Shown: positions 684 through 61,249, counted from the stretch's first letter. The stretch is DNA of 64,000 bases from Thermodesulfobacteriota bacterium (GCA_049514515.1 JBEKUZ010000017.1:1006-65005), one strand, 5' to 3'. The notes: a model not told the origin generated them from the sequence alone. Numbers and translations are program-made.

Positions 684-931
684 AACATTTATGGGAGGGC
701 AACCCATCTTTTCCATCCATTTTTAAAAAGGCCAACATTATATCCGAGACCCAAGACGACTACCGGTTCAAGAGAGACGAAGGCAGGATGAAGCCCGCCG
801 AGGTTTATTGCAAAGAGATTTTAGAGATCGGGGTTGACTCTTAGTGAAGTGATTGTGATATTCCCCCACGGCCCAATTGGGTGAACGGTTCGGGACCTTG
901 CTTGGCCAAGGTCCATGGGAGAGACGACCGC

Positions 932-4359: not shown

Positions 4360-5280
4360 CTACCACCATCGCCAGAGGGCAATAACAAGGGTGATCAAGA
4401 AGACGAAAATGAGATTCATGTAAGCCATGAAATAGAAAACTTTTTCGTATGGCGGTTTTTCAGGTTTTGTTTCAACTGGCGTCAGCTCGGCTATTTCGGG
4501 CATCGTCCATATTTTCTCTTCCCCATGAGGCGCTGTCTTAAGAAGATCTGTCAAGTCATTGCCTGCCTGATGCTTTTTGAAGTGGGTTCCTCCTTTCCAA
4601 ACCTTACTCAGACATACATCATAGACCTTGCCTTTGTAAGCGAAATAGGCTGGTCTATTCTCTGTACCGTCAAAATGTGGGAGGTCATCGAAGGTCATTC
4701 TGGCCTTGGGTTGAGTGGGGATGGAAGTCCTTTGTTTCCTGATTTTAGGCCCAATCACAAATGTCACGATGAAGGCCGTCGCCACCATGATCGCGAACAG
4801 GAATATCTTCACGCTCAATAAAATTCCAAATCTTGTGGCATAGAAGATTTTCCATGCTGGGATTCGAGAGACCGTTAACAGCGTTCCTGTAATCGAAAGG
4901 ATAACGATCCCAAGCCACCCGAGGATCAGTTCCCCTTTTGGAAGACCTTTTGCTGCATACGCCGGTTTCAGCAATATATGGACATATAGAATAGTTCCAA
5001 ACCAGGCAATGGCCATCAGAAGATGGACGTATCCGACGATCAACCGGACCACTTTTTGAATGGTACTGAGAGGGCGATAAATGCCTTTCGCTTTCAGATC
5101 TTCCCTGAAGGCTTCTCCATTCTTTGTCAGTTTTCCTCCTGTGGCATCCACATGACAGACCTTACACTCAAACCCCGTCTGTTGAGCATATTCAGGATTG
5201 GAGTGCGAAACCGCAGGGACACAAATGATGGATAGGAAAAAGAGGGCCAGAACATGGGTATTCAAAAGAGACTTCATCAA
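4360..5280 (-). CDS. Membrane-anchored c-type cytochrome fused to a C-terminal cytochrome b5-like heme-binding domain
   Basis: Signal peptide, then a single CKVCH heme c motif, then about 4 TM helices. The C-terminal segment FDGTENRPAYFAYKGKVYDVCLSKVWKGGTHFKKHQAGNDLTD matches the cytochrome b5 / MAPR-like fold (VYDVT..HPGG..AGxDxT pattern). Confidence 0.6.
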   Translation of the reverse strand: MMKSLLNTHVLALFFLSIICVPAVSHSNPEYAQQTGFECKVCHVDATGGKLTKNGEAFREDLKAKGIYRPLSTIQKVVRLIVGYVHLLMAIAWFGTILYVHILLKPAYAAKGLPKGELILGWLGIVILSITGTLLTVSRIPAWKIFYATRFGILLSVKIFLFAIMVATAFIVTFVIGPKIRKQRTSIPTQPKARMTFDDLPHFDGTENRPAYFAYKGKVYDVCLSKVWKGGTHFKKHQAGNDLTDLLKTAPHGEEKIWTMPEIAELTPVETKPEKPPYEKVFYFMAYMNLIFVFLITLVIALWRWW

Positions 5281-5387: not shown

Positions 5388-5870
5388 CTATCCCACCAGG
5401 CAGACGGCTATTCCTGCTCCTCGACTGGTGATCTTGTTCGCAATGCTTCCCATGAGAGCGTGTGCCGTAGCCGAGGCACCGCATCGTCCCATAATCAGAG
5501 TCTGATATCCCCCCGCCTTGGCTTCGGCCAGAATGCATTCCGCCGTGTTTTTGACGGACTCGGAAACCGACTTCGTTTCGATCTGCTTCGGGTTGATCCC
5601 TCTCTGCGTGAGGCTCTCAATCGCGGGCTGAAAAACAGACTCGATCTTGGCCTGTTGGTTGGCCAGCCACTTGTCGAGAACTTTTCTTCTGGCCGCCTTT
5701 TCCTCTTCATTCAGGATATGCCCGTCATCCCAGAGCTCCGGAGGAACTCCCGGGGAGACATGATAGAGGGTGATCTGTAAATCACTTATACCCGTGAACT
5801 GTTTGCCCGCATAGTCCACTGCTTTTGAAGCGCCCTCTGAGCCATCAATGGCAATCAATATCTTTCTCAC
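5388..5870 (-). CDS. uspA: Universal stress protein (UspA family)
   Basis: MRKILIAIDGSEGASKAV at the N-terminus and the C-terminal ATP-binding-type motif LIMGRCGAS...GSIANKI. 22 nt downstream of the qNOR stop codon. Confidence 0.8.
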   Translation of the reverse strand: MRKILIAIDGSEGASKAVDYAGKQFTGISDLQITLYHVSPGVPPELWDDGHILNEEEKAARRKVLDKWLANQQAKIESVFQPAIESLTQRGINPKQIETKSVSESVKNTAECILAEAKAGGYQTLIMGRCGASATAHALMGSIANKITSRGAGIAVCLVG

Positions 5871-5892: not shown

Positions 5893-8160
5893 TCATCTTC
5901 TCACGAATCGATAGGTGAGTCCTGCTGAAATGAGTAAAGGGACCACGCCCAACAGAATGAAAACGGCATCCGCCGGCAAACGCATCCACTCGATCAGAGT
6001 GGTGATGCGAGCATTTAGAAACTCAGGACCTCTCGCATGCCAATATCCGTTCTTCAATACATCGAAGAACTGGAGCACGCCCCCAGGAAAGAGATTCAGA
6101 ACCACCATCCCCGCCAGGCCGATATTCAGCCCCCAGAAGGAGAGCCGAATATATTTCTCCACCCGTGCCCACTCTTCATCGGGCAATACCTGCCGAATGG
6201 CGAAAACCATGAAGGCAACAGCGAACATTCCGAACACGCCCATCATCGCAGCATGGCCGTGATTGGGGGTGAGTATCGTGCCCACCTCGAAATAGCTGAC
6301 AATAGGCAGGTTGATGAGAAACCCGAATATCCCAGCCCCGACAAAGTTCCAGAATCCCACCGCCATCATAAAATAGAAGGTCCATTTGTGAGGGATCGAG
6401 ATTTCTTTGCCGCAGATGTCGCATTTTCCCTCGGACAACTTTATAAAGTCCCAGGCATCCAGTGTCAGCAGTGTCAGGGGTACGACCTCCATGGCGGAAA
6501 AGGTGGCGGCAAAGGCCATCGTTACGTTTGACTGTCCCGTCCAATACCAGTGATGCGCCGTGCCGATGATGCCGCCCCCGAGGAAAAGAATCGCATCTAA
6601 GTAAATGACCCGGGTTGCTGTTATTCGGGTGACCATTCCGAGCTTGTAGAAGAGGACAGCCACCATCGTGGTGACAAAGAGTTCAAAGAAGCCTTCCACC
6701 CACAGATGGATAATCCAAAAACGCCAGTTGTCCACCACCGTGAAGTGGCTCGTACTGGTGAAGAACATGGCCGGTAGATAAAACAGAGGAATCGCAAGAG
6801 CCGCCAACAGGAAGAGGGTGGAAATCTCACGTTCTTCCGGTTTTTTTCTTGCGGGACTGCTCGCTCTGAATATCAAGACGAGCCAGATGATCAGGCCGAT
6901 CGCCAGCAAAATCTGCCAGGCACGACCCAGGTCAAGATATTCCCATCCCTGATGTCCAAACCAGAACCAGAGTTTTCCAAGGAGTTGATAGACGCCAAGC
7001 ATCTCGCCCAGCAGACTGCCGAAGACGACGATAACCAGTGCAACAAAGAGAAAATGGATCCATTTTGCCTGGCCTTTTGGTTCTCTGCCTCCCAATGAGG
7101 TGGCGAGAAACAACCCTCCTGCGATATAGCCGGTGGCTATCCAAAAGATGGCTAACTGTAAATGCCAGGTGCGAAAGACATTGCCTGGAAAGAATGAAGA
7201 TAGATCAATGCCATAGAAACTTCCCGGATCGGCGCGGTAGTGAGCCGTTGCGCCTCCGACGAGGACCTGGGCTAAAAATAGCAAGGCAACAACTACAAAA
7301 TACTTTATTGTCGCTTTCTGGCTTTCGGCGACCGCCCCGGGGATCATTTGAGGATGGATATGTTCGCCCCCACCTTTCCAGCCAAGAAAATTGAATCTGC
7401 CGAAGGAGAAAAGAACGATGGCTGTTCCGGCAAGGAGGGTAATAAGGCTCAAAGCACTCCAGAGAACCGCGTCACCGGTTGGTGTATTTCCGATCATGGG
7501 ATCGTAAGGGAAATTATTTGTGTAAGAAAATGATTTCCCAGGACGATTTGATGCGGAGGCCCATGCGGTCCAGGCAAAGAAAGCGGTCAGTTGCTGGAGC
7601 TCTTTTGGATCCTTGATATGGTTGATCAGCAAGCCTCGATTTAACAGGGGTTGTGCAAAGTATTCTGTCCACTTTCTTATTTGGTTTCCGTAAGACATTA
7701 CTTCAGGAAGGGTGAAGGTCAACGTTTTGGTCTGCTGGTCATAGCGATTCTGTTTCAGCAACTGCTGGACTTCTGCAGTGACGGCAGCTCGTTCAGTCAA
7801 TGTGAGGTCCTGCCACTCGAGATGATAAATCTGTTTTGCGAGGAGGGTACTCGTATCCACGGCAAGCGTGTGAAGATACTCGGCGGAAAAATCAGGCCCG
7901 AGATAGGCACCGTGCCCCCAGATGGTCCCATTCTCCATCAGTCCGTATTTCAGGAAGACTTGTTGGCCAGTCACGATATCGTTGTGGGTAAAGATCGTTT
8001 CCCCGGATGGACCCACAACATTTTCGGGAATGGGTGGGGCATCCTCATGCGCCCGGATGGCCATCCAGATCAACACGGAAAACCCTATGACTAAGACGAT
8101 GATAACAGACCTTCTCCACCAGGGGGACAGTTTTTGAGAAGGACCTTTTTTCTCTGCCAT
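5893..8160 (-). CDS. norZ: Nitric oxide reductase large subunit, quinol-dependent type (qNOR / NorZ)
   Basis: 755 aa. One N-terminal TM and a roughly 200-aa hydrophilic domain (GLMENGTIWGHGAYLGPDFSAEYLH), then a 12-TM heme-copper-oxidase core. The non-heme Fe ligands are canonical (HLWVEGFFE and GTAHHWYW). The heme b/b3 ligands are canonical (NHGHAAMMG). The M24 stop and the qNOR start are 22 nt apart. Confidence 0.8.
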   Translation of the reverse strand: MAEKKGPSQKLSPWWRRSVIIVLVIGFSVLIWMAIRAHEDAPPIPENVVGPSGETIFTHNDIVTGQQVFLKYGLMENGTIWGHGAYLGPDFSAEYLHTLAVDTSTLLAKQIYHLEWQDLTLTERAAVTAEVQQLLKQNRYDQQTKTLTFTLPEVMSYGNQIRKWTEYFAQPLLNRGLLINHIKDPKELQQLTAFFAWTAWASASNRPGKSFSYTNNFPYDPMIGNTPTGDAVLWSALSLITLLAGTAIVLFSFGRFNFLGWKGGGEHIHPQMIPGAVAESQKATIKYFVVVALLFLAQVLVGGATAHYRADPGSFYGIDLSSFFPGNVFRTWHLQLAIFWIATGYIAGGLFLATSLGGREPKGQAKWIHFLFVALVIVVFGSLLGEMLGVYQLLGKLWFWFGHQGWEYLDLGRAWQILLAIGLIIWLVLIFRASSPARKKPEEREISTLFLLAALAIPLFYLPAMFFTSTSHFTVVDNWRFWIIHLWVEGFFELFVTTMVAVLFYKLGMVTRITATRVIYLDAILFLGGGIIGTAHHWYWTGQSNVTMAFAATFSAMEVVPLTLLTLDAWDFIKLSEGKCDICGKEISIPHKWTFYFMMAVGFWNFVGAGIFGFLINLPIVSYFEVGTILTPNHGHAAMMGVFGMFAVAFMVFAIRQVLPDEEWARVEKYIRLSFWGLNIGLAGMVVLNLFPGGVLQFFDVLKNGYWHARGPEFLNARITTLIEWMRLPADAVFILLGVVPLLISAGLTYRFVRR

Positions 8161-8181: not shown

Positions 8182-9303
8182 CTATTTCTCAAGTTGCCGA
8201 GGATATTCGGTTAGAACCATCGGTCCTTTCAGGCTCACCACCACGGTGTCTTCTACCCGGACGCCCCACGGACCTGTGTACAATCCACAATTACCTACTG
8301 CGATGACTACGTTCCTCTCGAGAGGAAGTGGCTCTTTCTCCCCATGGAAGAAGGCATGGCCCGGAGGCAAAGGAGATTCCTCGAAGTCAATGCCCACCCC
8401 ATGAATGGGAGGTCCAAAGATATGCCCGCCATGCCCTCCTTCTTTGACCACTTGACGAAGCGTCTGCTCCAACTCAACCATTCCAACTCCCGTCTTCACT
8501 TTGGCGATGGTGTTTTGCTGAGCTTTCAGATATAGATCGTAAGCGGTCTGCTGCTCGGCCGTCGGTTGACCTACACACACCGTCCTGCAGATATCCGCAC
8601 TATAACCGTTGACGATAGGATGGATGTCGATCATCACCAGATCGCCGGCCTGCAATTTGCGAAGTGTTGGAAAACCATGGGCAATATTCGTGCGCGGGCC
8701 AGAAGAGACGTAAGTGCGCCAGAACTCCTCTGCGCCAGCCCGTCGCATAGCAAACTCCGCCTTGGCCGCCACCTGGCTCTCCGTCATCCCTGGTTTCAAA
8801 GCTCCCACGGCTGCTTTCATTCCCTTTACAGCCACTTTTGCTGCGGCTTTGATGCGTTTGATCTCCTCTTTATCCTTGACGATACGCAATTCAGAAAGGA
8901 TGTGCGTGCAATCCTTGACTATTATTGCTGCAGGTTTGGCATGGGGATGGGTGAGTATGCCCATCATGGATTGTGTGAGAAAGGTATACTCCAGCCCGAC
9001 ACTCCCTTCTTTCACTCCAAAATGTTCAAAGTTGTGGGCGATGGAGTGGATCATCCCCACTTCATCATCAAAGCCAACGATGTGATCAAAGTGGGCGAGT
9101 TGTTTTACATCCATGACATCGGTTTGCGGAACTCCCAGAGCCACCTTTCCATCCTGAGTGATCATGGCATAGGCGCAGAGTCGCCCGTCACCTGTCAGGT
9201 AGAACATATTCGAAGGTTTGGTGAGCAAAAGGACGTTGAGACCTGCTTCCTTCATCAATTGGCTGCATCGCGTTAGACGTTCCGGATATTGTTGAGCACA
9301 CAT
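8182..9303 (-). CDS. M24 family metallopeptidase (Xaa-Pro aminopeptidase / creatinase fold)
   Basis: Pita-bread-fold metal-ligand context: DLVMIDIHPIVNGYSADICRTV, HGVGIDFEESP, and the N-terminal creatinase-like domain. Confidence 0.75.
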   Translation of the reverse strand: MCAQQYPERLTRCSQLMKEAGLNVLLLTKPSNMFYLTGDGRLCAYAMITQDGKVALGVPQTDVMDVKQLAHFDHIVGFDDEVGMIHSIAHNFEHFGVKEGSVGLEYTFLTQSMMGILTHPHAKPAAIIVKDCTHILSELRIVKDKEEIKRIKAAAKVAVKGMKAAVGALKPGMTESQVAAKAEFAMRRAGAEEFWRTYVSSGPRTNIAHGFPTLRKLQAGDLVMIDIHPIVNGYSADICRTVCVGQPTAEQQTAYDLYLKAQQNTIAKVKTGVGMVELEQTLRQVVKEGGHGGHIFGPPIHGVGIDFEESPLPPGHAFFHGEKEPLPLERNVVIAVGNCGLYTGPWGVRVEDTVVVSLKGPMVLTEYPRQLEK

Positions 9304-9359: not shown

Positions 9360-10610
9360 TTATTTCTTTTTTGCCTTTTCATGCATTTCTGCCGCCATTT
9401 CCTTAATTTCTGTCAGGTCCCTCTGCATCTCGCTCCAGCCATACCAGAAGGCATAGTCCGGGTTCGCATGAAATGCTCCTTCGAATGTCCTCATCCGGTG
9501 TTCGAGAAACATGACAAAGAGTTTTTGCTCGACGACGGTTGGAGCATCAGAAAAGGTGAGCAAGTCCGGAAACGGATAAGCATAGTTTTTGGGTTTGGGA
9601 AGGATGCCGTCTTTGTAAAGACTGGCTACTGTCCGGATTGCCTCTGCCATGAGACGATCTGCGTCTTTAATCGTCATATCGCCTTTTGCCAGCTCTGCTT
9701 TAGCAAAATTGATAGAGTGACATCGGTTACATGCCTTAACCATCTTGTCGCGCTCTTTCTGCCAATCTTCCTGGGTCAGCCGGGCCACATTTGCCGCCTT
9801 CACCACGTCTAAGCGGTCGGTCGGTTTCCCTTCAGGGTCGAGAACCCCAAGGGCCTGTAGAATCGTTGCACGGTCAGCGGCCCACTGCTTGTCCTCCGGC
9901 ATGGGGAGTCTCACGGCAAGAAATCCCCAGGCTGTGAGTACACCGTGATTTCCGTTCTGCATATGGCAGGTCTGGCAGGTTGGGGCGGAAATGGTTGAAG
10001 GGAGCACCTTGATTTGCTTAAGCATGTATCGGACGCCATGTTTCGAGCCAGAATACATCTCCCATTGAGGATGGTCGAAACCCGTGTGGCAGGTCTGGCA
10101 GGCCTGTGGTTGCTTCGCTTCCTGAACGGAGAAAGTATGCCGGGTATGGCATGCGTCGCAGGAGGCCAGGCCAAATCCTACGCCTTCCTTCTTTAATTCC
10201 TTTATGTCGGTTTCGCTCTTCAGCCCAATCTTGTGGCATCCTCCGCAGCCCTTCATGCCTTCGATCAGTTCCATGGGTTGCCAGTGTATGGTAGGCATTG
10301 CGTTCATCGCCGCCCACGCAACAGCATGCTTTCCGCTTTTGAATTGTTTTACCCGGGCTTCATGGCACGCTCCGCACGTATCGGGAGTGGGAATTTTCGC
10401 CTTTGCCACATCTTGAGCCGTTTTGTGTTGATCACCATGGCAATCTGAACAGCCAACCTTATTCTGATGGTGTTTGCTCAGTTGCCAATCCGAGACAATA
10501 TTAGGCGTAATTTTTTTATGGCATTCCACACATACCTGGGCTGAAGCAACAGAAATAAAGACCAAACTAAAGAAAGTAATAAGCACCGTTCGAAATGTTA
10601 TTCGTCCCAT
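9360..10610 (-). CDS. Octaheme c-type cytochrome with HAO-family-like heme spacing
   Basis: Signal peptide followed by eight canonical CxxCH motifs (CVECH, CSDCH, CGACH, CGGCH, CDACH, CQTCH, CQTCH, CNRCH). Seven lie in the first ~220 aa and the eighth follows an ~80-aa gap, as in hydroxylamine-oxidoreductase-like octaheme proteins. There is no CxxCK or CX15CH motif. Confidence 0.6.
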   Translation of the reverse strand: MGRITFRTVLITFFSLVFISVASAQVCVECHKKITPNIVSDWQLSKHHQNKVGCSDCHGDQHKTAQDVAKAKIPTPDTCGACHEARVKQFKSGKHAVAWAAMNAMPTIHWQPMELIEGMKGCGGCHKIGLKSETDIKELKKEGVGFGLASCDACHTRHTFSVQEAKQPQACQTCHTGFDHPQWEMYSGSKHGVRYMLKQIKVLPSTISAPTCQTCHMQNGNHGVLTAWGFLAVRLPMPEDKQWAADRATILQALGVLDPEGKPTDRLDVVKAANVARLTQEDWQKERDKMVKACNRCHSINFAKAELAKGDMTIKDADRLMAEAIRTVASLYKDGILPKPKNYAYPFPDLLTFSDAPTVVEQKLFVMFLEHRMRTFEGAFHANPDYAFWYGWSEMQRDLTEIKEMAAEMHEKAKKK

Positions 10611-10848
10611 ATCTCCCTCCTTTTGAGATCATATTCCAATAAGGTGATCATTTCCGCTGCCTGCCCTGTATCCCGCGAGACGCGGGACTAGGTTCAGGGC
10701 CTGTCGGCAGGTCGGTGATTGGATTTCGGTATGATAAGGTTGTAGGCTTACCCTCCTTAGCCCCTACCTTCATGGTCTCTTTCCATTCTAAACATCTCGC
10801 CATTCCTATATCAATCTTTTTTTTGAGATCTTTTTAGGTTCAGGGTAC

Positions 10849-17519: not shown

Positions 17520-17593
17520 GTCATTGCGAGGAGTCTCGCTTTGGCGGGACGACGTGACAATCCCCGAGATTGCTTCGCCTCGCTCGCAATGAC
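17520..17593. repeat. Palindromic REP-like element (gtcattgcgag...ctcgcaatgac)
   Basis: Perfect terminal inverted repeats. The same family recurs at 32523-32663, 60751-60781 and 61081-61232. Confidence 0.7.
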
Positions 17594-25960: not shown

Positions 25961-27754
25961 CTAAACATTCTCACCCTTGATGATGGCCTCGATTTGATTT
26001 CCGTCAAGAACCTCTTTTTCAAGAAGCGTATTTGCCAACGTATGGAGAGTGGTCATATTCGTCTGGACGATCTCTTTCGCCTTTTCATAGCCTTGGGCGA
26101 CGATGGTCCTTACTTCACCATCAATCAAACGTGCTGTCTCCTCACTATAGTCCCGGTGGCGGGCAAACTCTCTTCCCAAAAAGATCTCTTCTTCTTTCTT
26201 ACCAAAAGTCAGAGGGCCAAGCTTTTCGCTCATTCCCCACTCGCAGACCATTTTTCTGGCGATCTCCGTGGAGCGTTCGATGTCATTTCCCGCCCCGGTG
26301 GTTTGGCTGTTCAACACCAGTTCCTCCGCCACCCTCCCACCCATCATCACGGCGATGTTGTTCAGCAGATAGTCCCTGGGGTAGGTATGCTTTTCGTCTA
26401 TGGGGAGCTGTTGTGTGATTCCAAGAGCTCGGCCCCTGGGGATAATCGTGACTTTGTGAATGGGGTCTGTTCCCGGGATCATTCGTGCGACCAACGTATG
26501 ACCTGCCTCATGAAAAGCGGTAATTCTTCGCTCCTCCAGAGGGATGATCATTGATTTCCGTTCGACGCCCATCAGGACTTTATCTTTGGCCTGTTCAAAG
26601 TCGGCCATCTCGATGCGTTCTTTTCCTAACCGGGCGGCCAGCAGAGCCGCTTCGTTCACGAGGTTCTCCAGGTCGGCTCCGGTAAATCCAGGGGTTCCTC
26701 TGGACAGGACTGCGAGATTGACATCTGCCCCCAACAGGGTCTTGCCAGAGTGAACCTTCAGGATTTGCTCTCTTCCTTTGACATCGGGAAGGGGCACAAC
26801 CACCTGACGGTCAAAACGACCTGGCCTGAGTAGGGCAGGGTCTAAAACATCTGGCCGGTTTGTGGCTGCGATCAGGATGACCCCTTCGTTCGATTCGAAT
26901 CCGTCCATTTCAACCAACAGCTGATTTAAGGTCTGCTCTCGCTCATCGTGCCCCCCGCCCAGGCCGGCTCCTCGATGCCTTCCAACGGCGTCGATCTCGT
27001 CAATGAAAATGATGCAGGGGGCGTTCCGTTTTCCCTGAAGGAAGAGGTCTCGAACCCTGGAAGCTCCGACTCCCACGAACATCTCCACGAAATCAGAACC
27101 GCTGATGCTGAAAAAGGGAACGTCAGCTTCGCCTGCAATCGCTCGTGCGAGAAGCGTTTTCCCCGTTCCGGGGGCGCCGATGAGAAGAACTCCCTTAGGG
27201 ATCCTTCCGCCAAGCTTCGTAAACTTTTTGGGATCCCTGAGAAAATCGATGATCTCCTCAAGTTCACCTTTGGCTTCTTCAATTCCAGCGACATTCTCAA
27301 ATGTTACCTGATGGAGTTCTTTCGTCAGAACTTTCGCCTTACTCTTTCCAAAAGAGAGGGCCTTTCCACCGCCGATTTGCATCTGCCGAATGAAAAAGAG
27401 CAAAACGCCTACGAGAATAATCACCGGAAGCGATGTGATGAGAATACTCCAGAGAGAGAAGGACTCCTCTTCTTTCTTCACATTGATAACCACCCCTTTA
27501 TCTCGGAGAAGTTTAATCATCTCGGGGTCTTCAGGGGCATAAGTTTTGAAGCGTCTTCCTTCTTTATCCCTCCAAATAATGTTTCTACCGCGTATCTCCG
27601 CCTCCTGAACCCGATTGTTTTCCACGGTGGAGATGAAATCGGAATAATTTTTTTCTACCGCTGTTTGACGGGGTTTACTGAAAAGCTGGAAGAGAAGAAC
27701 CATCAGGATGACGATAATTGCCCAGAAGATCAGGTTCTTATAAAGAGAACTCAA
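25961..27754 (-). CDS. ftsH: ATP-dependent zinc metalloprotease FtsH
   Basis: AAA+ motifs ([14 protein letters not shown]), the HEAGH zinc motif, and N-terminal TM helices. Confidence 0.95.
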
Positions 27755-28049: not shown

Positions 28050-28739
28050 ATGGTGATTGAATCATTGAAACGGTGTCCTCTTTTTGCCGGGCTGAAAGAA
28101 GAAGACCTGAAAAAGATCAAGGCAGTTGCTTCGCTAAGGCGGGTCGGAAAGAAGCAGATTCTCTTTTCCGATGGGGAGGAGGCAAGGGGATTCTATGTGA
28201 TCCTTTCGGGAAAGGTGAAACTCTTCAAGATATCGCCGGAAGGCAAGGAGCAGATTCTTCATGTGGTGTCTCCGCCGGAGGCCTTTGCTGAGGCAGCTCT
28301 GTTTCTCGAAGGAAATTACCCAGCCTTTGCCGAGACCCTAACAGATAGCCAGCTTCTGTTTTTCCCCAAGAGGGATTTCATCCATCTCATCGAGCGGAAT
28401 CCCCAGCTTAGCATCAATATGATCGTCTCTCTTTCGCACTTTTTGAGAAAATTTGCTTCCCTCATCGAAGAGCTTTCCCTCAAAGAGGTTTCATCGCGAG
28501 TTGCAAAATATCTGATCGATCTCTCTTTGAAATCAGCAAAAGAGGGAAGGAACCCCAGAGAGGTCGATTTGGATTTAAGCAAAAGCCAATTGGCTTCAAA
28601 GCTGGGGACAATTAGTGAGACCCTTTCAAGGAGCCTGGCAAAGATGAAAGCCAAAAAGATTATCGAGGTGAAGAAGAACAGGATTCTCATCTTGAATCGA
28701 GAAGCCTTAGAAGCGGTGGCCTCAGGTTTGAAAATATAA
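28050..28739 (+). CDS. Crp/Fnr-family transcriptional regulator of the DNR/NnrR-like class, with no N-terminal Cys cluster
   Basis: cNMP-binding-like beta-roll plus a C-terminal HTH whose recognition helix carries the E--SR motif (SETLSRSLAK) typical of regulators that bind TTGAT-N4-ATCAA-type boxes. Only one N-terminal Cys, so not an FNR-type [4Fe-4S] sensor. An AT-rich promoter region lies upstream. Confidence 0.75.
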   Translation: MVIESLKRCPLFAGLKEEDLKKIKAVASLRRVGKKQILFSDGEEARGFYVILSGKVKLFKISPEGKEQILHVVSPPEAFAEAALFLEGNYPAFAETLTDSQLLFFPKRDFIHLIERNPQLSINMIVSLSHFLRKFASLIEELSLKEVSSRVAKYLIDLSLKSAKEGRNPREVDLDLSKSQLASKLGTISETLSRSLAKMKAKKIIEVKKNRILILNREALEAVASGLKI

Positions 28740-28836
28740 TCCGTCCTCGATCAGAGGTTTCCGCCGTTTGCACAAGAGTTATCCACAGAGTAGGTGTCGA
28801 TGATTCCAATCCATTTGTGAGAAATGCCGAAGAGAT

Positions 28837-29928
28837 TCAGAAACTGCTTTTCTCAATTAAAAGTTTTACTTCTGGAAGGGCCACCTCCTCTATCGTGGAG
28901 GGCTGCCAGTGCGGCAGGTCATCTTTGTCCAGAATGCGAGCGCGGATGCCTTCGAGATAATCCGAGTGTCTTATCATAAAGCGGGCCGCCCTGGTCTCCG
29001 CAGCAAACACCTCCTCCAGGGGACGTCCTTCATTATGCCGCAGCAGCGCCAAGGTGAGGACGAGTGCTGTGGGAGATCGTTCCGACAGCCGGTGATAGAC
29101 ATCCTGACACAAACGGTCCTCCTGGCTGCATCGGGAGAGGGAATTCATGATTTCAGGGAGCGAGGTCTTCCCAGCGAAATGGGTTGCTACCCACTCATCC
29201 ATTTCAGGATTGATAGGCATGTCTTTCTGGAAGAAGGAGGCAAGATAGGATTTGAGGTGCTCTATCGCTACCGTTTGGTCATCGGTGAGCTTTCCCTGGA
29301 AACTTTGAAGGGCCTTTCTCAGTCTCGGCAATCGCTCTCCCCTGGTTAACGAGTTTGCCAGTCCCAGGCGTACGCATTCCGCCCCTTCCATTTCGTAACC
29401 TACAAGTCCAAGGTATTCGGGGTATCCTCTGGGACACTTTGTAAACATCCAGCCTGTTGCGCCCACATCGGGGAAAAAGCCGATACGGGTCTCGGGCATC
29501 GCCATGAGGGTTCGCTCTGCGGCAACCACAATATTGGCCCCGGCAGATATACCAAGACCTCCTCCCATGGTGATGCCATCGGCGATCACGATCACCGGCT
29601 TCGGAAACCGGTGTATAAAAAGGTCCAAACCATATTCCTCTCGAAAAAACTCATCCGCAACGGAGAAAGATTTCTCCTTGACTGCTTTTGCGAGTCTCTT
29701 AAGGTCGCCACCTGCGCAAAACCCTCGGTTCCCGGTTCCGAGGAACAGGACAAACTGATATTGGTCCTCTTGAATCGCTTCGTCAAGGGCTTGGCGGACC
29801 CGCAGGATCATCTCAGTAGTGAGAGCATTGATGACGCGGGGCCGGTTGAGGATGATCTCCATCATAGACGGGTGACGCGTTACAATAACCTCAGGTTCTC
29901 GTTGATATGAACCGGTTGCCATAAACAA
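28837..29928 (-). CDS. Enoyl-CoA hydratase/isomerase superfamily protein (3-hydroxyisobutyryl-CoA hydrolase-like)
   Basis: Crotonase-fold signature (ILNRP..INAL, GNRGFCAGGDLK) and the long C-terminal extension typical of HIBYL-CoA-H-type members. Confidence 0.7.
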   Translation of the reverse strand: MFMATGSYQREPEVIVTRHPSMMEIILNRPRVINALTTEMILRVRQALDEAIQEDQYQFVLFLGTGNRGFCAGGDLKRLAKAVKEKSFSVADEFFREEYGLDLFIHRFPKPVIVIADGITMGGGLGISAGANIVVAAERTLMAMPETRIGFFPDVGATGWMFTKCPRGYPEYLGLVGYEMEGAECVRLGLANSLTRGERLPRLRKALQSFQGKLTDDQTVAIEHLKSYLASFFQKDMPINPEMDEWVATHFAGKTSLPEIMNSLSRCSQEDRLCQDVYHRLSERSPTALVLTLALLRHNEGRPLEEVFAAETRAARFMIRHSDYLEGIRARILDKDDLPHWQPSTIEEVALPEVKLLIEKSSF

Positions 29929-30221
29929 TATCCGCTATTTCCTCCATGAAAAAGAGTTCGCTGACGATGGCTTTCCCATTTTCTTATACATGAGTGATCA
30001 AGATAAATGGGGTGAATCAAGTATTTTTCGGGTTAAGAGACTGTATTTGAACCCCGCTTATACCAAATTCTTTTCTCTCCGGGCCTGTCATGTCGGATCT
30101 TCCGGGAGCAAGAGGAAAGATGAAATTGATAAATCGATAAATTGTTGGTAAATTGGTCTCAGTCCCACGATGAGGATGAGAAGGCATGTATCGACATCGT
30201 ATAAGAGAAGGGAGACCATAG

Positions 30222-31097
30222 ATGGAGATCGAGAAAGTATGCGTGGTCGGTATGGGAACGATGGGAAGCCAGATCGGGATAGTCTGTGCCAGAGGCGGTT
30301 TTCAAACCATCCTGGTGGACCTTTCCGAAGAGTTAACAAGAAAGGGCTTAGGATCTATCAAATCATTTCTAAGCAATCAGGTCAAAAGGGAAAGAATGAG
30401 AAGTGAGGAGATGGAGAAGGTTCTTTCTCTTATTGCCACGACGACAGATTTGACGAAAGCCCTTTCAGACGCGGCATTGGTGATCGAGGCGGTTTTTGAG
30501 GATATCAAGGCGAAGAAGGAGTTGTTCAAGAAGATGGACGGGATCTGTCTTAAGGAAGCCATTCTGGCAAGCAACACGTCCACGTTAAGCATTACGGAGA
30601 TGGGAGCAGTCACGTCTCGACCGGAAAGATGCATTGGAACACATTTCTTGATTCCGGCGGCCTTGACGCCGCTTGTCGAATTGGTGCGTGGGATAGAGAC
30701 TTCTGATGAGACCCACAAAACGATTATTGGCTTCATTACAACCTGCGGGAAAGAGACCGTTACCGTCGTGGACTCTCCGGGTTTTGTGGTCAACCGCCTT
30801 TACCTTCCGATGGTGAACGAGGCTTTCTATGTCTTGGAAAGTTCCCTTGCGAGTCCTGAAGACATCGACAGGTGTTGCGCAAGAGGCCTTGGCTTTCCTT
30901 TAGGCCCCTTGGCCGCGGCGGATGCCTTCGGGCTGGACATTCTTTTGCAATGTATGGAAACGTTTCATAAGGAGCTGGGTGAAAAATATCGACCGGCACC
31001 CCTCCTCGTCAAACTGGTCAAAGCAGGACGCCTCGGCCGCAAGAACGGAAGAGGAGTCTATGATTATCGCCTCTCCCCCCAGGGGACCGCATCGTAA
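30222..31097 (+). CDS. hbd: 3-hydroxyacyl-CoA / 3-hydroxybutyryl-CoA dehydrogenase
   Basis: Rossmann NAD motif [12 protein letters not shown] and the 3HCDH N- and C-terminal domains. Confidence 0.8.
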
Positions 31098-31100
31098 TGA

Positions 31101-32450
31101 TTGGAGGAAGTTACGAGACTTTCCGCTTTCGTTAAGAGGGAAGATATAAAATCCTTCATGTCACGCAGCTGGTCTGTGAGCTGGCCGCTGACGGTGATCA
31201 TGTTTTTTGAGTTCTTGATGGGCCTGACGGATGTTTACATTGCCGGCAAGGTGAGCAAAGAGATCCAGGCGACGTACGGTTTTGTCATTCAGCTCTATTT
31301 TGTTCTTATCGTGATTGCCAATGCCCTTACGGTGGGCACTGTCTCAGTCGTATCGAGGTTGTTCGCGTCACGAAATCAAAATGACTTAACTCAAGCGATT
31401 TTTTCCTCCCTCACGGCGACTGCCGGTGCAGGAATCGTCCTCGTCGCAGGGGGTTTCTTCTTTAGCCCTGAAATCATCCATTTTGTAAACATCCCGGAGG
31501 AGCTCAAATATCTTGCGGTCCCTTTCATCAAAATTTATTCGGTTGGTTTATTCTTCCACTACCTTCTCATCAACTCCAACGGGGTTTTGAGGTCTTGTGA
31601 CAGGGTGAAAGAGTCTTTGAAAACCCAGGCCCTTGTCTGTGCGCTCAACATCGGTCTCAATTTCTTTTTTGTGTTTTATACGCCTCTGGGATACAGGGGA
31701 ATTGCAACGGCCACCGCTTCAAGTGTCTTGATTGGTAGCCTGGTCAACCTATGGAAGGTGAGAAGTTTGATGACTGGGGAGAGGACATTTTCCGTCGGTA
31801 CCGTGCGAAAGATGATGACCATAGGCTGGCCGATTGGAATGCTTCAGGTGCTGTGGCAGCTCTCTTCCATGGTTCTTTTCCTGATCTTGAGCGCATTGCC
31901 CGAACGCCGGGTTGAAATTCTCGCTGCCCTGACGACCGGCCTGAGGATCGAATCGGTCATCTACCTTCCGGTCTTCGGGTTCAACATGGCCAATGCGGTG
32001 ATCGTCGGAAATCTGCTGGGCGAGAAGAGAAAAGAAGATGCCTTGCGAAGCGGATTCATCACCGCTGCGATTGGCGTGGTGGTTGTCACAATCATAGTCA
32101 TCGCGGTCATCTTGAATGCTCGATGGATCGCCTCGTTCCTGTCACATAATGAGATTGTGGTCAGGGAGAGCATGAAATATATTTATATCAGCATGATCAG
32201 CGAGCCATTTATGGCCTGGGGCATTATCCTCGGTGGAGGCCTGAACGGAGCGGGGGATACGCGAAGCGTCCTGATACGGGTTGCCCTGAGTGTATGGCTT
32301 GTAAGGATTCCTTTGAGCTATATCTTTGTCGTCTTCTTTGGGTTCGGACCGGCCTCGGTCTGGTGGTCGATGAATATCTCTCAATTCGTCCAGGCATTTC
32401 TAATGTCCAAAAGATATTTCGATAGAAAGTGGCTGTCCCTGGAAAAATAG
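31101..32450 (+). CDS. MATE-family multidrug efflux transporter
   Basis: 12-TM protein with the MATE repeat architecture. An alternative start lies at 31158. Confidence 0.7.
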   Translation: MEEVTRLSAFVKREDIKSFMSRSWSVSWPLTVIMFFEFLMGLTDVYIAGKVSKEIQATYGFVIQLYFVLIVIANALTVGTVSVVSRLFASRNQNDLTQAIFSSLTATAGAGIVLVAGGFFFSPEIIHFVNIPEELKYLAVPFIKIYSVGLFFHYLLINSNGVLRSCDRVKESLKTQALVCALNIGLNFFFVFYTPLGYRGIATATASSVLIGSLVNLWKVRSLMTGERTFSVGTVRKMMTIGWPIGMLQVLWQLSSMVLFLILSALPERRVEILAALTTGLRIESVIYLPVFGFNMANAVIVGNLLGEKRKEDALRSGFITAAIGVVVVTIIVIAVILNARWIASFLSHNEIVVRESMKYIYISMISEPFMAWGIILGGGLNGAGDTRSVLIRVALSVWLVRIPLSYIFVVFFGFGPASVWWSMNISQFVQAFLMSKRYFDRKWLSLEK

Positions 32451-32490
32451 GAAGTCAGAGGCCGTCCGTATTTTTGTAATCTTTAACCCA

Positions 32491-32710
32491 TTGCGTGCAA
32501 CCCAAATCCCAATTTAGGAAATGGTCATTGCGAGCGAAACGAAGCAATCTCTTCTTTTGCAATGAGATTGCCACGCCTGCGTACCGAAACTATTACTTAC
32601 CAAATGCCTTTGACGGGCCACTTCGGCGTGCAGGCACGCACCTTTTAGGTGCTCGCAATGACTGGATATCGAAGGGGTCTTATTCTTTAAATGGGAATTT
32701 GGGTGCAACA
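32491..32710. repeat. Composite ~220-bp palindromic element with imperfect outer inverted repeats, nested around a gtcattgcgag-family core
   Basis: Outer arms: tgcaacccaaatcccaattt / aaatgggaatttgggtgcaac. Inner arms: gtcattgcgagcg / gctcgcaatgac. Confidence 0.6.
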
Positions 32711-32716
32711 TCTGTG

Positions 32717-32730
32717 TTGACTTAGGTCAA
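32717..32730 (+). promoter_or_regulatory. FNR/DNR-type box TTGAC-N4-GTCAA centred 29.5 nt upstream of a TATAAT hexamer (32753-32758), upstream of the YgbA-like gene
   Basis: Perfect palindrome TTGACTTAGGTCAA. The spacing to the -10 element matches class II (-41.5) FNR/DNR-dependent promoters. Confidence 0.6.
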
Positions 32731-32768
32731 GGCACTTATTTTATTCTGGAATTATAATTAAATAATAG

Positions 32769-33158
32769 ATGGTGATGAAGGAAAGAGGAATGAGATTTAA
32801 AAAAGAAGGGACACCCAAAACGGAAAAAGATGATGTTCGGACTTTGATCAAGTTTGTGGGGATCTACTGTAGAAAGAATCATGATGGAGATAAGTCTCCT
32901 TTTTTATTCAAACTTTTCGATATCAAAGAGATCGAAAAGAGGGAGATCTCGCTATGCCCGGATTGCACACGACTTCTCACCTATGGCCTGACGATGAGGC
33001 TGAAGTGCCCCCATGATCCTAAACCCATGTGCAAGAAATGTGAGACTCAATGTTACCATGGTGAATATAAATCGAAGATCCGGGAAGTGATGAAGTTCTC
33101 CGGGATGTACCTGGTGAAGCACGGTCGGGTGGATGCGCTCTACCATTATCTCCGGTGA
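32769..33158 (+). CDS. ygbA: YgbA-like (nitrous-oxide-stimulated promoter family) Cys-rich protein
   Basis: Pattern IYCRKNH...CPDCTRLLTYGLTMRLKCPHDPKPMCKKCETQCYHGEYKSKIREVMKFSG matches the YgbA family (C..C..L..Y...R...CP......K..C..C..HCY....REKIR.VM..SG). The more likely start is the ATG at 32790, which is preceded by AGGAAAGAGG. Confidence 0.65.
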   Translation: MVMKERGMRFKKEGTPKTEKDDVRTLIKFVGIYCRKNHDGDKSPFLFKLFDIKEIEKREISLCPDCTRLLTYGLTMRLKCPHDPKPMCKKCETQCYHGEYKSKIREVMKFSGMYLVKHGRVDALYHYLR

Positions 33159-33237
33159 AATTCAGAAGGCGGAAAGCACAAGGCAAGAGGCAGTGATTAA
33201 TCTGCATTCTCCTTTCAGCCTACTGCTTTCTGGGGTC

Positions 33238-33251
33238 TTGATCTAAGTCAA
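33238..33251 (+). promoter_or_regulatory. FNR/DNR-type box TTGAT-N4-GTCAA centred 29.5 nt upstream of a TAAATT -10-like hexamer (33274-33279), upstream of the zinc-ribbon ORF
   Basis: TTGATCTAAGTCAA with the same geometry as the box at 32717. An AAGGAG Shine-Dalgarno and the ATG at 33301 follow. Confidence 0.55.
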
Positions 33252-33300
33252 AACACTTTTAGGGAAGGGATGTTAAATTTAAACTAAAGGAGACAAACGA

Positions 33301-33438
33301 ATGGCTGAGAAAAAGGAAATCGCCTGTTTCCTCTGTCACAAAACGGAACACGAGGGAGTTTTGATTCCTTGCCGGAAGGGTGGGCAAGATCTTTGGGTAT
33401 GTACCCGATGTTTACCCATGCTGATCCATGGTGGGTAA
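33301..33438 (+). CDS. Unannotated 45-aa C4 zinc-ribbon protein (ClpX-type zinc-finger-like)
   Basis: Not in the supplied ORF track (under 60 aa). MAEKKEIACFLCHKTEHEGVLIPCRKGGQDLWVCTRCLPMLIHGG has the CxxC...CxxC pattern resembling the ClpX N-terminal zinc finger (CSFCGK...VYICDECV). A strong AAGGAG SD lies 8 nt upstream. Confidence 0.55.
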   Translation: MAEKKEIACFLCHKTEHEGVLIPCRKGGQDLWVCTRCLPMLIHGG

Positions 33439-33508
33439 AACAGATAATCCCCTCAGTTCCTATTTTAGTTAAGGGGGATGAATGGGAATTTGTTAAGGAG
33501 GCACTGGA

Positions 33509-33916
33509 ATGGATAAATATGCAAAGGCATTTGTCAAATCGAGCCTGATCTATCTCGGAATTGGGACCATTATGGGAGTATGTATGGTTTTGTCTCCGGA
33601 TATTCGATTTACCCTCACGCAAGTTCATGTCCATATTCTTCTTCTGGGATTTATGGCGATGATGATTTACGGCGTAGGATATCATATTCTTCCCCGGTTT
33701 ATGGGGAGACCGGTTTACAGCCATCGTCTTGGTAATATTCAGGTATGGCTTGCTAATATTACGCTCATAGGTCTTTCCATTTCGTGGATTACAGAGGCCT
33801 CGCAAGGCGGAGTCTGGCACCTCTCAGCGATTTTATTCGGAATCGGTCAGGGGGTTGCGATTTTTTTGTTTATTTTCAATCTGTGGAAGAGCATGGTTCC
33901 TCAAACCACGGAATAG
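33509..33916 (+). CDS. Small 4-TM membrane protein with conserved His residues; function unknown
   Basis: Four predicted TM helices and an AAGGAGG SD. His-containing motifs are VHVHILLLGF and YGVGYHILPRF. Preferred over the antisense ORF 33284-33820. Confidence 0.55.
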   Translation: MDKYAKAFVKSSLIYLGIGTIMGVCMVLSPDIRFTLTQVHVHILLLGFMAMMIYGVGYHILPRFMGRPVYSHRLGNIQVWLANITLIGLSISWITEASQGGVWHLSAILFGIGQGVAIFLFIFNLWKSMVPQTTE

Positions 33917-34003
33917 TTCGGAGTTTAAAGCTTTGAGTTCGGAGTAAATCGATTAAATCTCCGCACTACAAACTAATTAATCCGAACCGAAAAGGAGTGT
34001 AGA

Positions 34004-34207
34004 ATGGCTGAGAAAAGGTTTCATAAGGATATGGTTATTGGAGATGTTTTGAAGGCGAACCCTGCAGCGATCAAGGTGATCGAAAAATATTTTGGGCAGG
34101 GCTGCTTCACTTGCCCTGGGATGAAGATGGAATCCATCTCTTTTGGAGCGATGATGCACAACATGGATCCAGAAGCAATTATTAAAGAGCTGAATGAGTT
34201 GGAATGA
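34004..34207 (+). CDS. DUF1858-domain protein (hybrid-cluster-protein-associated redox disulfide domain)
   Basis: 67 aa with a GCFTCPG motif and the DUF1858 pattern (IGDVLKANPAAIKVIEKYFGQGCFTCPG..SISFGAMMHNMDPEAIIKELNE). GGAG SD. Confidence 0.7.
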   Translation: MAEKRFHKDMVIGDVLKANPAAIKVIEKYFGQGCFTCPGMKMESISFGAMMHNMDPEAIIKELNELE

Positions 34208-34551
34208 GTGGTATGATGGAGCCTATTCATCTTTTTGAAAAAGCAGAGTTCTCTAAAGAGAACTTTATACCCAAGCAACTCCATATCGGGGATGCAGGAG
34301 CGGCAGTGCTCATCTGCTTTGAACCCGGCCAGTCCATGCCTCTTCACCCTCATCCGGGGGCTTTAGAAGTGATCCTCTATGGGGTTGAAGGGGAGGGGAC
34401 TTTGATGATCGGGGATGAGGAGAAACCCTTTAAGAAAGGAGACCTTATGTTTTGTAAGGGGGAGGTTCCCATCGGCCCCAAGAACACGGGTCAAGGAAGG
34501 TTCATGGTTCTGGTCATTCTTGTCTTAAAGCAGTTGGTTTCCAAAGGGTAA
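34204..34551 (+). CDS. Cupin-domain protein
   Basis: Cupin motifs (PGQSMPLHPHPGALEVILYGVEGEG ... GDLMFCKGEVP). The ATG overlaps the stop codon of the DUF1858 gene. Confidence 0.65.
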   Translation: MSGMMEPIHLFEKAEFSKENFIPKQLHIGDAGAAVLICFEPGQSMPLHPHPGALEVILYGVEGEGTLMIGDEEKPFKKGDLMFCKGEVPIGPKNTGQGRFMVLVILVLKQLVSKG

Positions 34552-35473
34552 GCTTTTTATAAAGGAGACCGTATCTCACCCCGTGGCAACTGATTAAGGC
34601 AGAGGGAGAGTTCAGTTCCTCCATCGCCAGATAAAGAATCGCTCCTCCAGCCAAGATCACATCCGCCCTGGCCGCGGGAAGACCGGGTATCTTCTTTCTC
34701 TCTTCGATCGTTCTGGATCGGTAGAGGAGAAGCTGGTTTTTCAGGCCCTCCCTTCTTAACACGAAATGATGGATCTTTTGAGGGATGAATTCCTCCAAAC
34801 CCTGTTCAACAGAGGCTAAGGTCGTCGCCGTCCCTCCCACAGCGACCATTGACGACGGCTCCTGTGAATGCGGGATTTTGGCAAGTAGCTCTCGGATTCT
34901 GTTCTCCATCGTATTCCACTCTTCCTCTTGAACAGGATCGGAGTGAAGATACTGTTCTGTGAAGCGGACCGAACCGAGTGGAAGGCTTATCCACTGATTG
35001 ATCTGATTGCCTCTCCCCAGGATGAACTCCGTACTTCCCCCACCTACATCGACCACAAGGATAGGTTCGTTTACCTCCATGAGATCCTTTGACACAGCCA
35101 AGTAAGAGAGTCGGGCCTCTTCTTCTCCGGAGATGACCTCAATGGAGAGATTCAGTTTTTCCTTAATCAGTCTTAAGAATTCTGCGGAATTTTTGGCTTC
35201 TCTGAGAGCGTTCGTCCCGACGGCAAAGATGTTTTGGACCTTCATCGCCCGGCATCGTTCCCAATATTGTGACAGAGTTTCAATGCCCCTATTCATTGCC
35301 TCTTTTGCAAGAATTCCACTCTTTTGGACACCCTCACCCAATCGGGCCACCGTCTCCGTCTCAAAAAGCGGCTTTATCTTCTCCCCTTCTACTTCGGCAA
35401 TGAGGAGTAGAATTGTGTTCGTCCCAATGTCAATGGAGGCCAACCTTTTACGCGAAGTAGGGCTGAATTTCAC
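34514..35473 (-). CDS. ppx: Ppx/GppA-family phosphatase (exopolyphosphatase / guanosine pentaphosphate phosphohydrolase)
   Basis: ASIDIGTNTILLLIAE and the ASKHA-fold motifs (DVGGGSTEF). Confidence 0.75.
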   Translation of the reverse strand: MKFSPTSRKRLASIDIGTNTILLLIAEVEGEKIKPLFETETVARLGEGVQKSGILAKEAMNRGIETLSQYWERCRAMKVQNIFAVGTNALREAKNSAEFLRLIKEKLNLSIEVISGEEEARLSYLAVSKDLMEVNEPILVVDVGGGSTEFILGRGNQINQWISLPLGSVRFTEQYLHSDPVQEEEWNTMENRIRELLAKIPHSQEPSSMVAVGGTATTLASVEQGLEEFIPQKIHHFVLRREGLKNQLLLYRSRTIEERKKIPGLPAARADVILAGGAILYLAMEELNSPSALISCHGVRYGLLYKKLTLWKPTALRQE

Positions 35474-60707: not shown

Positions 60708-60792
60708 GGATTCTATCGGGCTATGCCCTCGTAATGACTTTTTTCCTTTTGGTCATTGCGAACGGAGTGAAGCAATCTCAGAAAAATGATCC

Positions 60793-61080
60793 ATGAGTAA
60801 ACAATACTATGTTTACATCATGACCAACAAAAATAATAGAGTCCTCTACACCGGTATAACCAATGACTTAAAGAGGAGAGCATACGAACACAAAGAGAAA
60901 CTTGTTGATGGGTTTACGAAGAAATATAATGTTTCAAAACTCGTTTATTATGAAGCCCATGAAGATCCAGAAAATGCCATTTTGAGAGAAAAGAAGATAA
61001 AGGCGGGCTCAAGACAAAAGAAAATTGATTTGATTAATTCAATGAACAAGGAGTGGCGCGACTTATATGAAGAAATTTGA
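60793..61080 (+). CDS. GIY-YIG nuclease family protein
   Basis: YYVYIMTNKNNRVLYTGITNDLKRRAYEHK. Bracketed by direct copies of a REP-like repeat. Confidence 0.75.
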   Translation: MSKQYYVYIMTNKNNRVLYTGITNDLKRRAYEHKEKLVDGFTKKYNVSKLVYYEAHEDPENAILREKKIKAGSRQKKIDLINSMNKEWRDLYEEI

Positions 61081-61249
61081 GATTGCCACGCTACGCTCGC
61101 AACGGCTTCGTCGGATTGCCACGGGCTACGCCCTCGCAATGACAGCCCTTTTGGCGCTGAAAGGTTTCTTTCCTGTCGTTGCGAACGAAGCCCTGCACCG
61201 CATGGTGTTCAGGGCGGAGTGAAGCAATCCCAGATTTTGAATACATTTT

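Follow-up and report, generated by a model that had tools for sequence, protein, structure and literature searches.

A predicted HcpR-type regulon for nitrosative stress, including ygbA and a zinc-ribbon operon, in an uncultured Thermodesulfobacteriota bacterium

Our study examined a 64 kb stretch of the genome of an uncultured Thermodesulfobacteriota bacterium (GCA_049514515.1, JBEKUZ010000017.1:1006-65005; the window, to which all in-window counts refer) and identified a Crp/Fnr regulator of the HcpR type, 229 amino acids (aa) long and encoded at 28050-28739 on the plus strand, together with two 14 bp palindromic boxes that precede a ygbA-like gene and a probable operon beginning with a zinc-ribbon-like protein. 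The model that we favour, and consider well supported, is that this regulator binds both boxes as a class II activator and switches on ygbA and the four-gene operon under nitric oxide (NO) stress. By computation, the sites are non-random, conserved in both place and spacing, linked to the regulator gene and covarying with its recognition helix. The initial annotation had proposed a small NO-response regulon at this position; the regulator, its own class II boxes and the nitrosative-stress genes are supported by the footprint, the linkage and the covariation, and NO as the signal is read from gene content. Regulators of the HcpR kind were already described computationally in 2004-2005, and it is the target set that is extended here.

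Box 1, TTGACTTAGGTCAA, lies at 32717-32730 in the promoter of the ygbA-like gene (32769-33158), and box 2, TTGATCTAAGTCAA (reverse complement TTGACTTAGATCAA), lies at 33238-33251 in front of the zinc-ribbon operon; both are predicted HcpR sites, both read on the plus strand and both were located as first described. Their centres (32723.5 and 33244.5) fall, as the initial annotation had also measured, exactly 29.5 nucleotides (nt) before a -10 hexamer, which is TATAAT at the ygbA promoter (32753-32758, plus strand) and the -10-like TAAATT at the second promoter (33274-33279, plus strand). In the class II geometry of Crp/Fnr activators such as FNR, the site is centred at -41.5. The centres of the two boxes take this value if each hexamer occupies -12 to -7. 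The -35 position of the ygbA promoter is occupied by AAGGCA, which is no -35 match, and a scan with the sigma-70 consensus found a complete promoter at neither site and a -35 match at neither promoter. The spacing between box and TATAAT or TAAATT is that required of a class II promoter and is conserved, and the -35 element is missing, with the start position predicted from the -10 hexamer.

Three perfect TTGAY-N4-RTCAA sites were found in the window against 0.41 expected, and none of 100 shuffled sequences reached three or more. Scoring with a weight matrix built solely from orthologous sites of other genomes gave 27.1 bits for box 1 and 25.0 bits for box 2, compared to 12.4 and 11.1 bits for the next-best sites in the window and a maximum of 14.7 bits in 20 shuffled windows. 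The initial annotation had looked to such a matrix scan for further sites; run within the 64 kb, it set the two boxes far above chance and returned no other site above it. The third perfect site, TTGATTTCCGTCAA (25994-26007), was rejected as probable chance because its 12.4 bits fall within the range of the shuffles, it falls within the final codons of ftsH, 39 nt short of the folP start, and it has no -10 hexamer at the offset typical of real sites. It is kept solely in relatives with at least 88 % regulator identity, where the coding sequence is conserved anyway. Sites with one mismatch numbered 12 in the window against 10.2 expected, which is chance level, and those at 53928, 54452, 52775, 6985 and 19703 were set aside on account of that number and their unrelated neighbouring genes.

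Conservation of the boxes was assessed by a scan with the regulator alignment, taking one genome per species, which gave 64 loci, of which approximately 44 were non-redundant and orthologous, with 72-96 % protein identity, and came from Syntrophaceae-like or Thermodesulfobacteriota genomes (601 kb in total). These 44 loci contained 35 perfect boxes against approximately 3.9 expected: 29 in promoter regions, four that are the site within the ftsH coding sequence of close relatives and two that looked random. Of 19 related loci with ygbA, 16 have a perfect box ahead of the gene, as do nine of ten with the zinc-ribbon gene, or all ten when one mismatch is allowed. The alignments show no conservation ahead of the box, then the conserved box followed by GGCA, and a TAnnnT hexamer 36 nt from the box start, within 1 nt either way, across approximately 29 promoter sites. 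Besides ygbA and the zinc-ribbon operon, the boxes in related loci precede norCB, a flavodiiron/multihaem operon and frdX-like ferredoxin genes.

The association between regulator and boxed genes was also seen where gene order had changed. In one relative (L005) the two fatty-acid genes found in the window are gone, and the regulator, a MatE transporter gene and ygbA are adjacent. Another (L045) has the order norC, box, regulator, box, ygbA, box, zinc-ribbon, four-helix protein, DUF1858 and cupin, in which norC and the regulator diverge from a shared box; in this genome (L043 and L045) a boxed norC-like/norB operon is contiguous with the regulator and the boxed genes, and its NorB matches that of Pseudomonas aeruginosa (3o0r_B) at 4e-125. 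Directly downstream of a more distant relative of the regulator (53 %, L047) comes TTGACTTAAGTCAA, then TATATT at the offset seen elsewhere, then an operon for a multihaem cytochrome and a NorV-related flavodiiron protein. A 51 % relative (L048) likewise has a box directly after the regulator, and this protein and a 43 % relative (L053) adjoin boxed ygbA-like or frdX-like ferredoxin genes. As a separate observation, a remnant of the regulator of 82 residues (L057, 8001-8246) stands next to ftsH, the usual position, while the same 1.28-Mb contig (L005/L049) carries an intact regulator with MatE and ygbA approximately 1 Mb away, near a transposase gene; remnant and distant intact copy together suggest that the regulator-MatE-ygbA block moved as a unit in that genome.

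The regulator was classified by Pfam as cNMP_binding (PF00027, 84.2 bits, 6.4e-24) and HTH_Crp_2 (PF13545, 62.7 bits, 3.3e-17), which is the HcpR architecture of a cNMP-binding-like sensor domain followed by a C-terminal helix-turn-helix. No NCBIfam model places it, the best matches, FtrB and Fnr, being far under their cut-offs. The protein is 100 % identical to one that NCBI assigns to an uncultured Thermodesulfobacteriota genome, and identical copies were also found on peat and wetland metagenome contigs. Its 229 residues include a single cysteine, C9, and no Fe-S motif, so the protein has no cysteine cluster of the FNR type, and the recognition helix, GTISETLSRSL (codons at 28605-28637, plus strand, from the translation), places Ser at CRP position 180, Glu at 181 and Arg at 185 and is invariant in 16 orthologues. 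Both the absence of an FNR cysteine cluster and the E--SR helix (GTISETLSR) had been recognized at the outset.

The label of a DNR/NnrR-type regulator, which the initial annotation had attached to this protein, did not hold: the site, the helix and the gene-linked relatives are those of HcpR profile 2, and neither the DNR histidines nor the NnrR motif match. What supports this placement is the motif, the recognition helix and the hcp- or frdX-linked relatives, rather than a tree. HcpR profile 2, with the site nnTTGACcnngGTCAAnn, was defined for delta-proteobacteria other than Desulfovibrio (Desulfotalea, Geobacter, Desulfuromonas) and for cyanobacteria (Synechocystis slr0449 and Anabaena), and the accompanying rule is that HcpR regulators of TTGAC-type sites have Ser or Pro where CRP has Arg180 (Rodionov 2005; PMC1274295). 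Both boxes in the window match this profile and the helix of the regulator conforms to the pattern of Ser/Pro180, Glu181 and Arg185, with Ser at the first position. Among the published predicted sites (Table S1, PMC1274295), that of Desulfotalea psychrophila hcp1 (TTGACtTAGGTCAA) is identical to box 1 and that of Anabaena hcp (TTGACtTAGaTCAA) is the reverse complement of box 2, and the site between the divergent norB and hcpR genes of Synechocystis (TTGACtTAaGTCAAgg; PMC1274295) is the form seen in L043, L045 and L047 and equals TTGACTTAAGTCAA. The predicted Geobacter regulons include a cupin (COG1917), and nor genes occur in the published regulons; the regulon tables of 2005 contain neither ygbA nor the zinc-ribbon protein, the four-helix module or DUF1858 (PMC1274295). 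Profile 2 is itself a computational prediction with little direct biochemistry behind it.

The closest solved structure is nevertheless that of DNR from P. aeruginosa (3dkw; 8.9e-30, 107 bits, residues 9-222), with the next match at 1e-23 and 87 bits. DNR (3dkw, 2z69) is an NO-responsive activator that controls nor genes from FNR-like boxes, and it shares with our regulator the absence of a cysteine cluster and the E-x-x-S-R helix. It differs in that the uncharacterized relatives linked to hcp and frdX are nearer, at up to 50 % identity, and in that the host of the window is not a proteobacterial denitrifier. NnrR of the alpha-proteobacteria is also an NO-responsive Crp/Fnr activator, and the regulon of Bradyrhizobium diazoefficiens includes a small DUF1858 protein encoded beside nnrR; its site consensus, ctTTGcg-N4-cgCAAag, differs from both boxes at half-site positions 4-5 (TTGAC/TTGAT...GTCAA here). 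FNR of Escherichia coli and Aliivibrio fischeri belongs to the same family, has class II geometry and shares the TTGAT half-site of box 2, but it needs four cysteines for its [4Fe-4S] cluster where our regulator has one, and FNR entries match the regulator more weakly than DNR does (3.7e-19 to 7.4e-19).

Scanning a metagenome collection with the DNA motif alone, TTGACYTARGTCAAGG, returned at least 120 loci whose downstream genes were inspected. Among the matches listed, the gene downstream was hcp in at least nine cases (one of them checked: Prismane, 1e-174), a frdX-like ferredoxin gene in at least seven, ygbA in at least five, ccoN-like and HD/zinc-ribbon genes in at least four each, norC-like and NIR_SIR-like genes in at least three each, qNOR and the zinc-ribbon gene in at least two each, and the four-helix protein, cupin, DUF2249 and DUF438-hemerythrin in at least one each. 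At least 25 of the 120 motif loci listed had an adjacent homologue of the regulator, 33-50 % identical to it and often divergent from hcp (L079, L102, L150, L163) or frdX (L091, L135, L186), and those divergent from hcp with the same motif were 43-50 % identical. These motif-linked homologues carry the helix LGTI[P/S]ETLSR; since homologues with the same helix adjoin the motif at so many loci, the regulator of the window belongs with the HcpR proteins linked to hcp and frdX. In a more remote case, an Acaryochloris plasmid encodes a regulator 36 % identical to ours whose gene diverges from qNOR, and the intergenic region contains TTGACTTAAGTCAA. As a side observation, in four unrelated metagenome loci (L083, L087, L128, L144) the gene directly downstream of the motif encodes a zinc-ribbon protein with an N-terminal MKCPGQD..CxxC, which in the one case checked (L083) also has an HD domain, and this protein is a possible further member of the HcpR regulon.

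Loci from other phyla provided a control for specificity. The regulator of the window and its 40-50 % relatives pair the helix GTI[S/P]ETLSR with TTGAC sites, and relatives with an R-E-x-x-S-R helix carry TGTGA-type sites instead. One locus (L074, 2470-2490) has TGTGACTTAAATCACA, of the CRP-like HcpR profile 1 type, before an operon of hemerythrin, AF_0155, DUF1858, a NIR_SIR-like gene and the four-helix protein, and the adjacent regulator has the helix GTVREVISR, with Arg180. A second locus (L076, approximately 240-260) has a similar operon behind TGTGACTTAAATCACA, with an additional COX1-family gene of 527 aa, and no regulator gene was seen within that locus. Judged from these sequences, helix and motif covary as the published rule predicts, and because they change together it is the regulator of the window, and not an unseen paralogue, that is expected to read the boxes.

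The genes behind the boxes are those first described: a YgbA_NO protein, a 45-aa protein with a CxxC...CxxC arrangement, a four-helix protein of 135 aa, a DUF1858 protein and a cupin, all on the plus strand. The ygbA-like gene was assigned by both Pfam (PF11756, 57.2 bits, cut-off 25) and NCBIfam (NF007714, 94.6 bits, cut-off 88), and its true start is probably the conserved ATG at 32790, with the ribosome-binding site GGAAAGAGGA upstream, giving a protein of 122 aa. In enterobacteria ygbA is repressed by NsrR and responds to NO (PMC1274295, PMC2884951, PMC5320621). The zinc-ribbon-like protein (33301-33438) is the first gene of the operon; it has no match among curated families and is 67-97 % identical in ten related loci, where it is always downstream of a box. 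The DUF1858 protein (34004-34207; PF08984, 50.9 bits; TIGR03980, 59.6 bits) has a CFTCPG motif and belongs to the hybrid-cluster-protein-associated redox disulfide domain family; in B. diazoefficiens the small DUF1858 gene beside nnrR is among the most NnrR-dependent genes (PMC6710368). The small cupin (34204-34551; Cupin_2, 2.2e-13) is kept after DUF1858 in related loci. Zinc-ribbon, four-helix, DUF1858 and cupin genes probably form one operon with the cupin last, as the gaps are 70 and 87 nt, the cupin and DUF1858 genes share 4 nt at the DUF1858 stop codon and no further box was found inside the unit.

The most novel part of the finding is the four-helix protein (33509-33916) and the link of this module to DUF1858. 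No curated family covers it: its match to Pfam COX1 (PF00115; 5.6e-8, 32.5 bits) is under the cut-off of 34.8, although it aligns to residues 309-411 of CcoN (3mk7) at 3.3e-9, including the helix-X His-x-His pair, which is kept as H40 and H42, together with H59. A first AlphaFold2 model from a shallow alignment (predicted local distance difference test score, pLDDT, 58.8) was not used; with 40 diverse homologues the pLDDT was 93.5. The top 20 Foldseek matches in the PDB were all subunit I of haem-copper oxidases or NO reductases, with query TM-scores of approximately 0.6-0.83, and the best was CcoN of cbb3 oxidase, with a query TM-score of approximately 0.8 over a quarter of the target (target TM-score approximately 0.25). 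On this model the protein is a stand-alone module with the predicted fold of helices IX-XII of haem-copper oxidase/NO reductase subunit I. Compared to the 12 helices of subunit I it represents one third, and the CuB ligand set is not visible in it, which places it outside that family.

A full-library search found the family as single (approximately 135 aa), double (approximately 290 aa) and triple (approximately 410 aa) modules, each carrying the motif H-x-H...YH..P (P0242, P0246, P0273, P0315 and P0345 among others), with single-module members also in anammox bacteria, Nitrospirae and Firestonebacteria. Across 40 homologues 16 positions are invariant, including H40, H42, Y58, H59, P62, N83 and N124. 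One protein (P0273) fuses the module to two DUF1858 domains, and two others (P0315 and P0345), with DUF1858 at the C-terminus, match both the NnrS model and, in three stretches, the module. The connection of the 135-aa protein to NnrS is indirect, through these two proteins: it has no Pfam match to NnrS (PF05940) itself, and comparing the four-helix family with one canonical NnrS by hhalign gave a probability of 1.3 %, which is not significant. The family is linked to HcpR-type regulators in several phyla. A tentative proposal, which we regard as improbable but worth stating, is that the second promoter drives an undescribed NO-handling membrane haemoprotein system, in which the stand-alone four-helix module, with its helix-X His-x-His pair, would be the core, may assemble as a trimer into a 12-helix scaffold like that of NnrS and would work with DUF1858, the zinc-ribbon protein and the cupin.

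In the mechanism that we infer, which extends to binding by this protein, activation, the NO signal, operon structure and target roles, the regulator would use a cofactor of the N-terminal sensor domain to sense NO or stress arising from nitrite, by analogy with its characterized relatives, and its dimer would bind both palindromic boxes, TTGAC-N4-GTCAA. Each box, at approximately -41.5, would replace the -35 element while a good -10 is retained, and the regulator would recruit RNA polymerase as a class II activator, turning on ygbA as one unit and the zinc-ribbon protein, four-helix membrane module, DUF1858 and cupin as the other. A class II activator is the most likely mode because the box replaces the -35 element in a promoter that keeps its good -10, and the signal is most likely NO or stress arising from nitrite, judging by the genes with which the sites occur: norCB, qNOR, flavodiiron, hcp, frdX, ygbA and DUF1858.

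Several observations weigh against this interpretation. Neither hcp nor frdX, the defining HcpR targets, was found in the 64 kb window or in close-clade loci, and three of the 19 ygbA loci lack a perfect box. The geometry of about -41.5 depends on the assignment of the -10 hexamers, and the boxes overlap the -35 position and could also serve a repressor, a mode of action that has been proposed for HcpR2 of Desulfovibrio desulfuricans at hcp (PMC5701242). Other Crp/Fnr paralogues that read TTGAC/TTGAT boxes may be encoded outside the 64 kb. Within the sensor domain, His71 is conserved in the regulator family, and His occurs there in 18 of 25 motif-adjacent homologues; it is missing in the Acaryochloris relative and so is a candidate sensor residue that is not universal. 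The proposed haem ligands of DNR, His139, His167 and His187, align with R133, K161 and K184 of the regulator and are not conserved.

Among the alternatives, the one that retains most weight, though we consider it unlikely, is that the regulon is real and responds to oxygen, general redox stress, carbon monoxide or nitrite itself rather than to NO. Flavodiiron proteins and haem-copper enzymes also reduce oxygen, the cupin, zinc-ribbon and four-helix proteins are without known function, and no ligand-binding residues could be assigned in the regulator. However, the targets met repeatedly in different genomes comprise hcp, frdX, norCB, qNOR, ygbA, NIR_SIR-like genes and partners of NnrS-like proteins, and the characterized relatives, DNR and the HcpR proteins of Porphyromonas gingivalis and Desulfovibrio, respond to NO.

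Only slightly less probable is that the regulator is a repressor that occludes the -35 region and is released when it becomes nitrosylated or damaged, for which the overlap and the HcpR2 precedent given above would speak. A consensus-like -10 without a usable -35 (AAGGCA) is, however, what activator-dependent promoters usually show, and the distance between box and -10, fixed within 1 nt over approximately 29 sites, is needed for polymerase contact on one face of the helix and not for occlusion. With its one cysteine, the regulator is also without the Fe-S sensor proposed for the HcpR2 repressor.

We judge it improbable, and somewhat more so than repression, that the boxes are real Crp/Fnr sites bound by a family member encoded outside the window, for example an oxygen-sensing FNR, with the regulator a mere neighbour. 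The pattern TTGAT/TTGAC-N4-ATCAA/GTCAA is common to FNR, DNR, FixK and HcpR profile 2, the matches of the metagenome scan also included ccoN-like and hemN-like genes, such as FNR/Anr typically controls in proteobacteria, and it is 64 kb of the genome that was inspected. Yet the regulator is the only Crp/Fnr gene in the window, it stays linked to the boxed genes through several rearrangements, and its helix fits the published motif rule, whereas relatives with a different helix have a different motif before similar genes. That the two boxes are chance palindromes, as the third perfect match at 25994 appears to be, is refuted by scores far over the shuffle maximum, the ninefold excess of boxes in related loci at conserved position and spacing, and the coherent gene sets and regulator family recovered by the motif-only scan.

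The window also contains a qNOR gene (5893-8160), which the initial annotation had counted towards its nitrosative-stress functions. The gene is present and the window is indeed rich in N-oxide genes, but qNOR is not a predicted regulon member in this genome because no site above chance was found in the 327 nt upstream of the multihaem cytochrome gene or in the rest of the qNOR cluster. On the minus strand this cluster comprises an HAO-like multihaem cytochrome (9360-10610), an M24 peptidase (8182-9303), qNOR, which begins 21 nt after the M24 gene, itself after the multihaem cytochrome gene, a universal stress protein (5388-5870) and a CopD/cytochrome b5 fusion (4360-5280). The only candidate before the multihaem-M24-qNOR operon was a lone TTGAT half-site at approximately 10813-10817, which was discarded as no box. 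The multihaem cytochrome of the cluster has counterparts, 75-77 % identical, that carry a box and are linked to the regulator in two other loci (L047 and L043), and qNOR followed by CopD occurs also on the Acaryochloris plasmid (L071). Near the cluster, the gene for a large hybrid histidine kinase (881-3625), which has a receiver domain as well as three GAF domains, is followed by a radical SAM gene (3622-4344).

Around the regulon itself, the regulator is preceded by ftsH (25961-27754, minus strand) and followed by genes for an enoyl-CoA hydratase (28837-29928, minus strand), a 3-hydroxyacyl-CoA dehydrogenase (30222-31097, plus strand) and the MatE transporter (31101-32450, plus strand), and the cupin is convergent with ppx (34514-35473, minus strand). 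The MatE gene begins 4 nt from the dehydrogenase gene, has no box of its own and keeps its position between regulator and ygbA in most related loci. No box was found upstream of the regulator gene in the window that would indicate autoregulation, whereas the related loci L043 and L045 have one. Three copies of an element resembling a miniature inverted-repeat transposable element (MITE) or a repetitive extragenic palindrome (REP), with terminal inverted repeats GTCATTGCGAGC and GCTCGCAATGAC, were found at 17520-17593, 32524-32662 and 60752-61143, and its arms gave six matches in the window against 0.26 expected. The second copy is immediately upstream of box 1, and in L005 (12566-12652) an inserted copy separates ygbA from a one-mismatch box.

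In summary, our findings leave the understanding of how such regulators work unchanged, and extend the predicted HcpR nitrosative-stress regulon to an abundant uncultured lineage of peat and wetland Thermodesulfobacteriota (Syntrophaceae-like genomes). If the proposed membrane haemoprotein system is real, the four-helix family could bear on the origin, by module triplication, of the 12-helix oxidase and NnrS scaffolds. The approximately 29 orthologous sites with fixed promoter geometry, alongside the covariation of helix and motif, provide a natural data set for the specificity rules of the Crp/Fnr family. The addition of ygbA, the zinc-ribbon protein, the four-helix module, DUF1858 and the cupin as conserved members of the predicted regulon gives a physiological context to protein families of unknown function.

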